Shown here in pieces: positions 61,438-64,000 of a DNA stretch of 64,000 nucleotides. How positions within the stretch are numbered: position 1 is the first letter of the stretch; every line of letters starts with the position of its first letter. Both the position numbers and the translations under genes were made by a program. The DNA comes from a phage: NCBI GenBank assembly GCA_014685065.1, contig GCA_014685065.1_4092.2. One strand, 5' to 3'. The notes under the pieces are model-generated. The model worked only from the letters and a program-made list of their open reading frames with translations, searched no databases and was not told the DNA's origin.

Positions 61438-61466
61438 ATTGACTTTTTATACAAATCGTATAAAAT
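61438..61466 (+). promoter_or_regulatory. promoter for tandem array B (TTGACT ... TATAAA)
   Basis: ttattgactttttatacaaatcgtataaaat upstream of first array gene. Confidence 0.45.
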
Positions 61467-61496
61467 ATGATTGATATTAATTTTAAGGGAGTCCCT

Positions 61497-61694
61497 ATGC
61501 GTATTTTAACTCAAGCAGAACACCACGAAAGACTTATCAATAACATGGCTATGATAATGTATAAGTCACATGAACGTGGTATTGCCTATAAGCGTGAATT
61601 AATTATGGCACTATTCATTGGAACTAACTTTCAGGAAAGGTATGTCAAGGATTGGATTTGGTATTTAATTGAAGATGTAACGAGTAAACTATGA
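61497..61694 (+). CDS. array B paralog
   Basis: ATG 61497 after AAGGGA; ...FIGTNFQERYVKDWIWYLIEDVTSKL. Confidence 0.55.
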   Translation: MRILTQAEHHERLINNMAMIMYKSHERGIAYKRELIMALFIGTNFQERYVKDWIWYLIEDVTSKL

Positions 61695-61891
61695 AAATGC
61701 GTAAATTAACCGAAAAAGAATATCAAGCACTGTTACGTAAAAACTTCACAAAGATTTATAATACAGACTCACACGTAGAACGAATGGAGTTATACCTTTT
61801 GATTACATTGGGAACTAACTATCAGGATGCATGGGTAACGAAATATGTGGATACATTGAAAAATAAAACATTGTCCACGAGGAAACAATGA
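61691..61891 (+). CDS. array B paralog
   Basis: ATGA overlap; LGTNYQDAW. Confidence 0.55.
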   Translation: MKMRKLTEKEYQALLRKNFTKIYNTDSHVERMELYLLITLGTNYQDAWVTKYVDTLKNKTLSTRKQ

Positions 61892-62103
61892 AAACTATAA
61901 CACGAACCCAATCATTCGGACTTATCTTGAAATACATGGACTTAATGGTGGATATCAGCAAAGACCTTAGTAAAACTGAAATTGAAGTTGCAATTGCAAG
62001 AGCAGAGTTCCGCATGTTGGCTGTACTGAACACAAACCATCAGGAAGATTATGTTGAAGAATGGATTCATTTTTTAATAGAAGATATAAAGAGTAAATTA
62101 TGA
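61888..62103 (+). CDS. array B paralog
   Basis: ATGA overlap; LNTNHQEDYVEEWIHFLIEDIKSKL. Confidence 0.55.
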   Translation: MKTITRTQSFGLILKYMDLMVDISKDLSKTEIEVAIARAEFRMLAVLNTNHQEDYVEEWIHFLIEDIKSKL

Positions 62104-62315
62104 TTATTATAGAAAACTCATATCAATATACTGAACGCATCGCTGCCAGACAACTTGAAATCCTCATAATATACGAAGAGACTTCTGATTTAAACTTAGC
62201 CGAGGTATTGGAAAATGATATACTATTGGGTGCATTCTTAGGAACAGACTATCAGAAGTATTATGAGGAAAAGTATTTGTCATCTCTTGAGAAATACATC
62301 AGGAGTAAACTATGA
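62100..62315 (+). CDS. array B paralog
   Basis: ATGA overlap; LGTDYQKYY...IRSKL. Confidence 0.55.
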   Translation: MIIIENSYQYTERIAARQLEILIIYEETSDLNLAEVLENDILLGAFLGTDYQKYYEEKYLSSLEKYIRSKL

Positions 62316-62524
62316 TTTTTTTAACACCAGAAGAATATAAGAAACGTTTCAAATCCGCACAGGGTGAAATCTTACTTATATACCTTTCAAATGCAGACCT
62401 TGACTTATCAAGGGTATTAGAAAAAGATTTACTTATGGGTGCATTTTTGGATACAGACTTTCAGGAGTATTATGTAGGGGAATACTTAATTGCACTCCAG
62501 AAATACATCAGGAGTAAACTATGA
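62312..62524 (+). CDS. array B paralog
   Basis: ATGA overlap; LDTDFQEYY...IRSKL. Confidence 0.55.
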   Translation: MIFLTPEEYKKRFKSAQGEILLIYLSNADLDLSRVLEKDLLMGAFLDTDFQEYYVGEYLIALQKYIRSKL

Positions 62525-62739
62525 AACATTTAAGTATCACCGAGAAGAATAAAATTGTCATTGCTGCAATAAACAAATATTTTACACTTCCTCACAAAGA
62601 AGGTTTATGTGTAAGGGAACACAGGATAAACACCACCGATATACGCATGATGGCTGTACTGGGGACGAACTTTCAGGAAGAGTATGTTGTTGCACACATA
62701 GTTGCCCTCACAAATCTAATAAGGGATAAATGTAAATGA
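62521..62739 (+). CDS. array B paralog
   Basis: ATGA overlap; LGTNFQEEY. Confidence 0.55.
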   Translation: MKHLSITEKNKIVIAAINKYFTLPHKEGLCVREHRINTTDIRMMAVLGTNFQEEYVVAHIVALTNLIRDKCK

Positions 62740-62993
62740 AATACTTAACTTCTGACGAATATTCACTTAGAATTCGTAAACTCACCCCAGAAGCAAGAGT
62801 AATCTACGATGACGATGCACTTTCATGGGTCGAGATGAAAGTTAAAGTTCATGAGCTATGGTTGCTGTACTTTGTGGGAACCCAATATCAAGAGAAATAT
62901 TGTACCGATTATCTTGAACAACTAATGGATCTTATACAGGAAAAACTAAATGATCGAATTGTGGAAAAATATGAAAACTTTATCAAGCACTGA
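62736..62993 (+). CDS. array B paralog with C-terminal read-through
   Basis: canonical ...QEKL end is followed by NDRIVEKYENFIKH because the usual ATGA stop is lost. Confidence 0.5.
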   Translation: MKYLTSDEYSLRIRKLTPEARVIYDDDALSWVEMKVKVHELWLLYFVGTQYQEKYCTDYLEQLMDLIQEKLNDRIVEKYENFIKH

Positions 62994-63222
62994 GTATCAA
63001 ACTGCCCTCTTCTCCCTTCTAAACACCCTCCGCACGAACAATAAACTTTATAATTCCCGTGAAGCTGATATCATCAATGCTGAGGTATATCTTAATAAAT
63101 TCATAGGGACAAACTATCAAGAAATGTTCACTCAACGATATATCTCTGCACTGAGAAACGCAATATGTGATAAAACCCGCCAAGCCCAAAGAGAATGGAA
63201 TAAACAATGCGACAAAGACTAA
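62950..63222 (+). CDS. array B paralog
   Basis: ATG 62950 at the position where the previous stop would normally be; IGTNYQEMF. Confidence 0.5.
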   Translation: MIELWKNMKTLSSTEYQTALFSLLNTLRTNNKLYNSREADIINAEVYLNKFIGTNYQEMFTQRYISALRNAICDKTRQAQREWNKQCDKD

Positions 63223-63458
63223 ATCACAAAATGTATTGTAAACTATTGCAGACACTGGCACAGAAACACTATGACACTGTATCTGAAATATTACCCTATG
63301 ATATCATGCGTTTAATTCATAGTGAGGCAGAGATGCTTGTACTGATGACAGGCACTGATAAAAAAGCAATTGCCAAATCAATAGATATGTTCATCGAAGC
63401 ACAATGTCAACACATTAGAACCGAGATATGGAGACGAGAGAATGATAACACTAAATGA
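63207..63458 (+). CDS. array B paralog (divergent)
   Basis: coupled ORF; MTGTDKKAI in place of GTNYQ. Confidence 0.5.
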   Translation: MRQRLNHKMYCKLLQTLAQKHYDTVSEILPYDIMRLIHSEAEMLVLMTGTDKKAIAKSIDMFIEAQCQHIRTEIWRRENDNTK

Positions 63459-63657
63459 GTTTCAGTATCATTGGAGGTTACAAACTATCAAATCAAAAGT
63501 GTATAGTATTGTGTTAAACAAATCTATTGCACAAGAGGACAAATGTGTTATAATAGCTGAAATGAAGTTGGGTGCTTTCGTAGGGACAAACTATCAAAAC
63601 ATCTACACTGACGTATTGTTAAGTGCCTTACGTAACAAGGTGGTATCCAAAATATGA
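63442..63657 (+). CDS. array B paralog
   Basis: VGTNYQNIY...VVSKI. Confidence 0.55.
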   Translation: MITLNEFQYHWRLQTIKSKVYSIVLNKSIAQEDKCVIIAEMKLGAFVGTNYQNIYTDVLLSALRNKVVSKI

Positions 63658-63872
63658 GAAATTTACAAGGCTTTGAATACATCAGACTCCTGAAAACATG
63701 CACCAGCAGAAGGAAAATCTTATCAAGCGATAAGAGCATCCAAGCTAACCTTAAGCACGCACTAGTAACTGAACTCTATGTAGGTGCACTCTTAGGCACA
63801 AATTATCAACAAATGTATGTAGATCTATGGATTGACGCTCTACAGAAAGAGGTTAAAAGTAAATGCAAATGA
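63654..63872 (+). CDS. array B paralog
   Basis: ATGA overlap; LGTNYQQMY...VKSKCK. Confidence 0.55.
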   Translation: MRNLQGFEYIRLLKTCTSRRKILSSDKSIQANLKHALVTELYVGALLGTNYQQMYVDLWIDALQKEVKSKCK

Positions 63873-64000
63873 TTAATTTAAGTAAAGACGAATTTTATGT
63901 TATACTGGCGAAAACTTATCCAGCACGTAAGGCCGTTTATGATAGTCACATTATTGAACCCTCAAAGAAGTTGATTTTAGTAAATGAGATAAAGATGCTT
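63869..64000 (+). CDS. further array B-like gene, 3'-partial at window end
   Basis: ATGA overlap; hand-translated MINLSKDEFYVILAKTYPARK... Confidence 0.4.
   Translation, partial: MINLSKDEFYVILAKTYPARKAVYDSHIIEPSKKLILVNEIKML

Follow-up and report, generated by a model that had tools for sequence, protein, structure and literature searches.

An array of about 30 mostly overlapping, diverged small paralog genes beside the terminal repeat of Asteriusvirus jumbo coliphages

A lineage-specific expansion of about 35 zinc-ribbon genes has been described in phage G (Iyer et al. 2021, PMC7824862). In coliphages of the genus Asteriusvirus, Hua et al. have remarked on a gene array, and the phAPEC6 paper echoes this remark. 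The subject of the present analysis is array B, a run of small genes at the end of a 64,000-nt stretch of phage DNA (contig GCA_014685065.1_4092.2 of NCBI GenBank assembly GCA_014685065.1, referred to below as the window), which was examined from 61,497 to the window end on the + strand. It is the same orthologous array as a published Asteriusvirus locus (PHROG 4148), with 86-94% DNA identity and the same position and order. The count given by Hua et al. fits the array B family (31 matches to a profile hidden Markov model (HMM)), the only family to reach that number, but their wording 'very similar' is ill-suited to members that are ~25% identical. Neither paper gives coordinates, and both could be referring instead to a 21-copy RCC1-like array, although the count fits array B better. 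In the searchable literature the fold, the adjacency to the terminal repeat, the coupling cassette and the function of the array are not described, and literature searches found no functional, transcriptomic or ribosome profiling study of any Asteriusvirus early gene.

Within the window, array B contains 11 complete + strand open reading frames (ORFs; 65-85 aa) and a twelfth, which is truncated at 64,000. They form one protein family, PHROG 4148, annotated as 'unknown function'. The phrog_4148 profile was run against ten window members (the complete ones apart from member 11, at 63,654). It matches nine of these at E values of 1e-12 to 1e-24, covering profile positions 1-71 of 74; the sole miss, member 9, matches the family's own HMM at E 4e-18. 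The 11 complete members align over their full length, with Thr49 present in all of them, Gln52 in 10, and Gly48 and Leu63 also near-invariant. The original prediction, made from the sequence alone, of a protein-coding array of coupled paralogs with a common motif is therefore borne out, and the motif survives proper alignment (Thr49 invariant, Gln52 in 10/11). Its presence in nearly all members holds for the loose form T-x-x-Q (10 of 11), while the strict pattern is matched by only about 5 of the 11. The rest of the 64-kb window has no further ORF matching the family, and Tandem Repeats Finder (TRF) detected no DNA-level tandem repeat in array B. Within a genome the paralogs are on average 25% identical (mostly 15-35%), and a few adjacent pairs or triplets reach 42-56% (maximum 56%). 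With most paralogs at 15-35% identity, most of the duplications must be old. The members present in the window are:

61,497-61,694, + strand: member 1, 65 aa, containing …FIGTNFQERY…TSKL; phrog_4148 E 1.5e-19
61,691-61,891, + strand: member 2, 66 aa, ATGA junction to member 1; phrog_4148 E 7e-19
61,888-62,103, + strand: member 3, 71 aa, motif variant LNTNHQE; phrog_28039 E 1.9e-34, phrog_4148 E 1.9e-12
62,100-62,315, + strand: member 4, 71 aa, acidic (isoelectric point (pI) 4.4)
62,312-62,524, + strand: member 5, 70 aa
62,521-62,739, + strand: member 6, 72 aa, a recombinant of G17 cassettes 06 and 08
62,736-62,993, + strand: member 7, 85 aa, 23-nt overlap with member 8 (44 nt if member 8 starts at 62,950)
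62,971-63,222, + strand: member 8, 83 aa (90 aa from the alternative start at 62,950); phrog_4148 E 4.8e-19
63,207-63,458, + strand: member 9, 83 aa, divergent loop TGTDKKAIAK with a 2-residue insertion and loss of the Gln; orthologs conserved
63,442-63,657, + strand: member 10, 71 aa, modelled by AlphaFold2
63,654-63,872, + strand: member 11, 72 aa, identical protein on 23 public contigs
63,869 (or 63,863)-64,000, + strand: member 12, truncated by the window end, beginning MINLSKDEFYVIL…

The start of the first gene at 61,497 stands as predicted, because the upstream in-frame ATG at 61,467 reads AGG in two of the aligned relatives. In member 8 the family-typical N-terminus, MKTLS, begins at 62,971. 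The G17 orthologs of members 4 and 5 are 50% identical to each other and, judged by this value, member 5 is a younger local duplicate. The full-length ortholog of member 12 in phAPEC6 (L001 10,458-10,676) carries LGTNYQE.

The genes are selected as coding sequences. Pooled over 30 ortholog groups mapped to HMM columns, the ratio of nonsynonymous to synonymous polymorphism (pN/pS) is 0.37, and no region exceeds 1. The GTNYQ loop (0.17) and the N-terminal strand (0.28) have the lowest values, and helix 1, loop 1-2 and helix 3 the highest (0.41-0.49). No positive selection was found by region or by column in these 30 groups, a comparison of low power. The orthologs of the window members have values of 0.41-0.50, compared with 0.21-0.26 for 14 flanking genes. 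These substitution patterns indicate that the orthologs are under purifying selection. As the pattern is seen within ortholog groups, each paralog conserves its own sequence, and the paralogs are, by the same measure, long-lived and individually maintained. The second line of evidence comes from the starts: complementarity to the anti-Shine-Dalgarno sequence upstream of array starts has a mean of -4.5 kcal/mol, compared with -1.35 kcal/mol over all array positions (p 2e-9). It is because of this p value and the pooled pN/pS that we consider the ORFs to be real, selected genes.

The window junctions show how these genes are joined. The original prediction had every gene overlapping the next by ATGA. 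This is correct for 7 of the 10 junctions between complete genes (8/11 with 63,869 as the start of the last gene); the overlaps at the remaining three measure 23, 16 and 17 nt. Of the 28 junctions in G17, 23 are overlaps or gaps no longer than 1 nt, and all stay within 29 nt. In many members (R/K/T)-S-K-L stands just before the stop codon, encoded for example by ATC AGG AGT AAA CTA TGA, which holds AGGAG, a 6-7-nt spacer and then the ATGA overlap. The SKL-type tail is common to many members because the Shine-Dalgarno sequence of the next gene is embedded in their last codons; as far as its codons indicate, the shared tail in part also serves the next gene, supplying its ribosome-binding site and start. 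D-K-C-K (…AGGGATAAATGTAAATGA) is the ending at a second type of junction. Ahead of the array, two signals can be recognised:

61,439-61,466, + strand: predicted sigma70-type promoter, TTGACT-16 nt-TAAAAT, 10/12 consensus matches (consensus scan)
61,485-61,491, + strand: Shine-Dalgarno sequence of gene 1, AAGGGAG, anti-Shine-Dalgarno duplex energy -7.9 kcal/mol, conserved in the alignment of relatives, JNE01 included

The predicted promoter is kept in five of six aligned relatives, including the divergent JNE01, and is the only conserved promoter ahead of the array. In BF17 a gene is inserted at the promoter site and a different promoter-like sequence is found there. The interior of the phAPEC6 array has 49 promoter-like sites in a consensus scan, compared with 50.8 in shuffles, and a single one reaches 11/12 (L003 12,316). 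A scan of the same array found no convincing + strand terminator inside it, and Rfam and tRNA scans of the array region were empty. The products gp467c-gp489c are not found in the available text and tables of the phAPEC6 virion proteome paper (PMC7247149), which suggests that array products are not virion-associated.

Structure prediction, using AlphaFold2 with a 54-sequence alignment for member 10, gives a confident three-helix bundle (predicted local distance difference test (pLDDT) score 97, predicted template modelling (pTM) score 0.81) with helices at residues 6-25, 31-46 and 52-70 and a one-residue beta-bridge from residue 2 to Thr49. The fold is predicted with high confidence to be a generic up-down-up bundle in a soluble protein of ~70 aa. 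The conserved residues lie in the hydrophobic core, the N-terminal strand M-K-x-L-T and the G-T-N-Y-Q turn. In the model, Gly48-Thr49-Asn50 would link helices 2 and 3 by a tight turn that is pinned to the N-terminal strand, and the conserved L-T-x-x-E-Y (residues 4-9) would fit an N-capping box of helix 1. The GTNYQ motif thus looks structural, or fold-determining, rather than catalytic, and there is no need to read it as an active site. Across members, net charge lies between -8 and +9 and pI between 4.3 and 9.9. This spread led us to reject a uniform role as acidic DNA mimics or as basic DNA-binding proteins.

Sequence searches of Pfam, PADLOC and the PDB remained at the level of noise, a PDB fold search gave no informative structural match for the bundle, and no helix-turn-helix (HTH)-like or other nucleic-acid-binding fold was matched in the fold searches. 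No homology to known defence or anti-defence proteins was found by PADLOC or PDB searches, which did not include a dedicated anti-defence library.

Matches to the segment 61,400-64,000, at 86-94% DNA identity, come from 34 phage records, each of an Escherichia or Salmonella jumbo phage, and every matched record that was opened belongs to Asteriusvirus (phAPEC6, G17, Sharanji, slurp01, PBECO4 and others; ~350 kb). On these matches the window comes from an Asteriusvirus (PBECO4/121Q-like) jumbo coliphage. The same locus is found, in the same position and order, as genes ~319-350 of 121Q, gp467c-gp489c of phAPEC6 and G17_00585-00613. All genes under the matches are annotated as 'hypothetical protein', and several members are unannotated in phAPEC6.

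The array does continue past 64,000, and relatives have 27-29 contiguous members with 2-4 more nearby or dispersed (~30 in all). With the family HMM, G17, phAPEC6, BF17 and two phage contigs from E. coli assemblies each yield 29-32 members, with 27-29 contiguous genes over ~6.3 kb and two more ~1.3 kb further on. A complete genome of 351,992 bp has 31 matches: a contiguous run of 27, two close by and two at a distance of ~15 kb. No other paralog family in that genome is as large; the RCC1-like family comes second, with 21 copies. In the window, tandem ~380-aa RCC1-like beta-propeller paralogs (Pfam PF25390, PF00415) occupy ~25,493-37,079 on the minus strand. Among relatives the copy number of the array B family ranges from 19 to 32, with 19-20 in JNE01. 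Just past the array in phAPEC6 (L003 14,039-15,375), three paralogs of phrog_13866 (114, 134 and 106 aa) precede the last two members.

The family as a whole is rare. A HMMER scan of 1.84 billion cluster representatives gave only 64 matches, none with a Pfam domain or an informative name. The named sources that were traced are Asteriusvirus (including the divergent JNE01/Turkey5 clade) and Klebsiella Alcyoneusvirus (RaK2, KP13-7, Muenster, phiKp_21); several of the 64 representatives are on metagenome contigs. So restricted a distribution, as far as sequence matches reveal it, is typical of accessory host-interaction genes. Klebsiella phage KP13-7 has at least seven members, scattered over 20 kb and not coupled. 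Some relatives have two domains (KP13-7 (L011) 9,134-9,499 and 12,814-13,161; RaK2_00372), an architecture conserved in Klebsiella Rak2-like phages. These are 115-121 aa long, and their additional C-terminal domain of ~50 aa matches nothing in Pfam or PHROG. On a metagenome contig of 3,149 bp in the European Nucleotide Archive (P0181), adjacent array members of groups 22 and 23 are fused in frame into a 154-aa product, through either a genuine loss of the stop or an error in the sequence. Asteriusvirus contigs of 345-360 kb, dozens in number, have also been deposited within 'Escherichia coli' assemblies, which suggests frequent phage carriage in sequenced isolates, or contamination.

Although each paralog is conserved, the array as a whole changes. 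The presence of cassettes 07, 08, 16, 17, 19 and 20 varies between genomes: the window lacks G17 cassettes 07 and 08, and two assemblies lack 16, 17, 19 and 20. JNE01 has its 19-20 members at the same slot, with flanking genes that are 90+% identical, and only two of them fall into ortholog groups common to other genomes. Member 2 is split into 40-aa and 29-aa pieces in assembly CABVOQ01, and a 52-aa truncated member and 28-aa remnants are present among relatives. DNA and protein alignments show that member 6 consists of the body of G17 cassette 06 followed by the last ~45 nt of cassette 08 (…HIVALTNLIRDKCK). Such a product is expected when paralogs recombine in register within the conserved helix-3 segment, and copies are gained and lost in this way. 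We rejected an arrangement of silent cassettes feeding one expression site, since every copy keeps its start codon, Shine-Dalgarno sequence and purifying selection.

The original prediction had read ongoing decay and renewal from the 85-aa member (62,736-62,993), seen as having lost the shared stop and running 14 codons into the next gene. Turnover is real, on the other evidence given above, but this gene is no sign of decay. Its orthologs are also 85 aa long in G17, in the assemblies L004 and L005 and in 121Q (gene 325), with a ratio of nonsynonymous to synonymous substitution rates (dN/dS) of 0.30. In its model (pLDDT 96) helix 3 spans residues 52-84, and the 14 extra residues are a continuation of that helix (pLDDT 84-95). 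Member 7 is thus an old, maintained variant with no sign of current decay.

The position of the array in the genome is defined by the direct terminal repeat (DTR), one edge of which lies immediately upstream:

~61,398-61,400, no strand: right edge of the DTR, from three independently determined genome ends

In vB_Ec-M-J the annotated DTR is 1-21,525 and the first array gene is at 21,624. In the G17 record, position 1 is the same as position 350,150, which marks the DTR. The fEgEco12 DTR of 20,993 bp, confirmed by restriction digests (PMC13070987), maps to the same edge. With its left edge mapped to ~41,305, the DTR is ~20 kb long (window ~41,305-61,399). Gene 1 (61,497) begins ~98 bp beyond its end. 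The array is therefore outside the DTR, and it matched a single place in the G17 record, though this record holds both DTR copies. Across the DTR end, at 61,360-61,438, is a GC-rich non-coding block, which is conserved even in JNE01 and has no Rfam match; it is a candidate terminase recognition or terminus site.

The interior of the DTR includes at least 25 copies of a stereotyped expression cassette upstream of small genes. This consists of GTACTTGCAA or TTGACA, 16-17 nt, TATAAT, TTTACATC, a GC hairpin (GGGGAGAATAGTTCTCCCC) and a Shine-Dalgarno sequence, followed by the ATG. Between 52 and 60 kb, eight of the DTR promoters are perfect 12/12 sigma70 consensus sequences. Array B is built otherwise, with one predicted promoter and a strong Shine-Dalgarno sequence followed by ~30 coupled genes, and without the DTR-type cassette. 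Its predicted promoter, 40 bp past the DTR end, is weaker (10/12) than the 12/12 promoters inside the DTR.

Some other elements of this region should be mentioned. Three hairpins with 12-bp stems in the DTR (54,346-54,383, 57,650-57,687 and 59,911-59,948) have their own -35 box inside (AAAGGGATTGACTCCGGTCAGTCCCTTT), followed by GCTATTATAT. A conserved CCCACAGGGTGCA box is found ~50 nt downstream of the hairpins and is present in six copies in the DTR. Together, the hairpin and box could be a structured promoter or regulatory element. The DTR gene at 56,193-56,447 has orthologs with a precomputed Pfam ParE_like match (PF24732), and its product would have a toxin-like fold among presumed early genes. 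A second mini-gene array, array A (39,892-41,041), comprises six ~60-aa paralogs (MHKEYYT…LIYRY). Mapping ruled out that it lies inside the DTR, since it ends ~260 bp before the DTR start. A relationship with array B, which the original prediction had also denied, is ruled out by an hhalign probability of 0.2%. The two unrelated arrays flank the terminal repeat on either side.

How these observations translate into a function is a matter of interpretation. We favour, with moderate confidence, the reading that the array encodes small, diversified binders which are expressed early and serve in host takeover or counter-defence. Host RNA polymerase would transcribe the array as one long, translationally coupled early or delayed-early operon, and its products would be a panel of small binders that share a scaffold. 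Every paralog might target a different host factor, or a variant of one, in host takeover, counter-defence or exclusion of competing phages, and differences in repertoire between strains would then reflect the different hosts encountered. Counted in its favour, besides the selected coding genes, the confident bundle fold, the lack of array products in the virion data, the recombination junction and the narrow distribution, are the early-region context (an adjoining DTR packed with consensus sigma70 promoters, and a predicted array promoter kept in JNE01); the division between scaffold and variable regions (pN/pS 0.17-0.28 in the loop and strand against 0.41-0.49 in helix 1, loop 1-2 and helix 3); and the variation in repertoire (19-32 copies, with only two common ortholog groups in JNE01). 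Other observations weigh against it. An active arms race might show as positive selection, and a test of low power gave no sign of it. With identities of 56% at most, the paralogs are too old for a recent adaptive amplification. The array is just outside the DTR, and compared with the DTR promoters its own is weaker and not part of the stereotyped cassette; 'early' timing is for this reason not assured. Finally, tight coupling is more typical of the subunits of one complex than of independent effectors.

This last point leads to the main rival explanation, in which the paralogs serve the phage's own programme, either as one hetero-oligomeric assembly or as small regulators or adaptors for transcription, replication or DNA handling, with coupling setting their stoichiometry. 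We regard it as possible, though doubtful. ATGA coupling and the absence of strong internal promoters or terminators would give co-expression in a fixed order, and purifying selection keeps every paralog. The conserved 'top' of the bundle (the N-terminal strand and the GTNYQ turn) could be a common interface, and the ~35 zinc-ribbon copies of phage G have been suggested to be transcription factors or DNA-binding proteins (PMC7824862). A core machine, however, would not tolerate 19 to 32 copies or the near-total replacement of the repertoire in JNE01, member charge spans -8 to +9, and the fold searches point to no HTH-like or nucleic-acid-binding protein. Moreover, the family is absent from other Rak2-like genera except for the Klebsiella phages, where it is dispersed and not coupled. 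Coupling thus favours such an internal role, while copy-number plasticity disfavours it. A diversified panel with a strain-specific repertoire would fit inter-phage competition equally, with the proteins acting against other phages or mobile elements, for example in superinfection exclusion. The many Asteriusvirus genomes within E. coli assemblies hint that the phages are carried for long periods, during which exclusion would be of benefit. Judged by eye, with no predictor, the sequences show no sign of membrane or periplasmic targeting, unlike many exclusion proteins, and we consider this explanation improbable.

Two further explanations would deprive the proteins of any role. The array might be functionless filler, tandem duplications having been fixed because a headful-packaging jumbo capsid tolerates or needs extra DNA, an explanation that draws on the 'ratchet' proposed by Hua et al. 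2017. The array is indeed under more relaxed selection than its flanks (0.41-0.50 compared with 0.21-0.26), and some copies are broken or truncated. But pN/pS is 0.37 across all protein regions in 30 ortholog groups, starts, Shine-Dalgarno sequences and frames are kept in ~30 genes across divergent genomes, and the fold is preserved at ~25% identity. Pure filler DNA is unlikely given this selection signal, and we allow it a slim chance. Alternatively, the ORFs might be untranslated and the region a repeat or RNA element. Nothing other than the short ORF size speaks for this. No DNA tandem repeat or Rfam match was found, synonymous-biased substitutions are a coding signature, an independent protein HMM (phrog_4148) matches and AlphaFold2 confidence is 97, so that this reading is effectively refuted.

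The question is of practical interest, as jumbo phages are under development for therapy and at least 80% of their genes are unassigned. The array makes up ~2% of the DNA and is among the most variable loci between otherwise near-identical isolates. If its products are host-directed binders, they would be candidate host-range determinants and would offer a ready collection of small, well-folded proteins, ~30 or more in number, that inhibit E. coli proteins. An inert array would be a clean example of genome inflation by duplication.

Several known systems resemble array B in part. The terminal-redundancy module of SPO1 has many small, uncharacterised genes at the genome end with host-type promoters. 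BF23 and T5, according to PMC10644984, have terminal repeats of ~9.7 kb and a two-step injection. The likeness of array B to the SPO1 module and to the T5/BF23 pre-early modules lies in the many small genes at the genome end and the host-type promoters. Array B differs in lying ~98 bp outside the repeat and in consisting of paralogs that would share one coupled operon, where those modules have unrelated genes with their own promoters. It is the DTR proper, rather than array B, that resembles these modules, with no sequence homology.

Array B can also be compared with genomic accordions, such as the amplification of T4 tifA against toxIN (Srikant et al. 2022, 10.1101/2022.04.14.488369) and that of poxvirus K3L (Elde et al. 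2012, as cited in PMC13359090). In both cases, which are linked to host defence, the copy number of a small viral gene in tandem is changed by recombination, and in array B copy number varies and a recombination junction is visible. However, accordion copies are recent and near-identical, and they multiply under selection before collapsing again, whereas the array B paralogs are ancient (15-56% identical) and each is conserved separately. With a mean identity of 25% and a maximum of 56%, the near-identical copies of a recent adaptive amplification are not found.

The MGF110, MGF360 and MGF505 multigene families of African swine fever virus (ASFV), and poxvirus families, have roles in immune evasion and host range that have been shown experimentally. 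They consist of tandem diverged paralogs beside terminal repeats with isolate-specific gain and loss, as in array B. Neither these viruses nor their hosts are related to those of array B, homology is absent, and a similar role for array B is suggested only by analogy. Taken to its limit, this analogy would make array B the phage counterpart of these terminal multigene families: a heritable library of ~30 mini-binders on one three-helix scaffold, expressed from a single coupled operon right after genome entry, in which each product neutralises a different host immunity or housekeeping protein and cassette recombination creates chimeric specificities that tune host range. We put this forward as a speculative and rather unlikely extension of the binder reading.

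Another close parallel is phage G. It too is a jumbo phage in which one very small domain is present in ~30-35 tandem copies. The domain differs, being a zinc ribbon, whereas array B encodes a predicted three-helix bundle without conserved Cys or His, and the lineage and host are others. In kind, array B is a lineage-specific tandem expansion in a jumbo phage, to which that of phage G is comparable.

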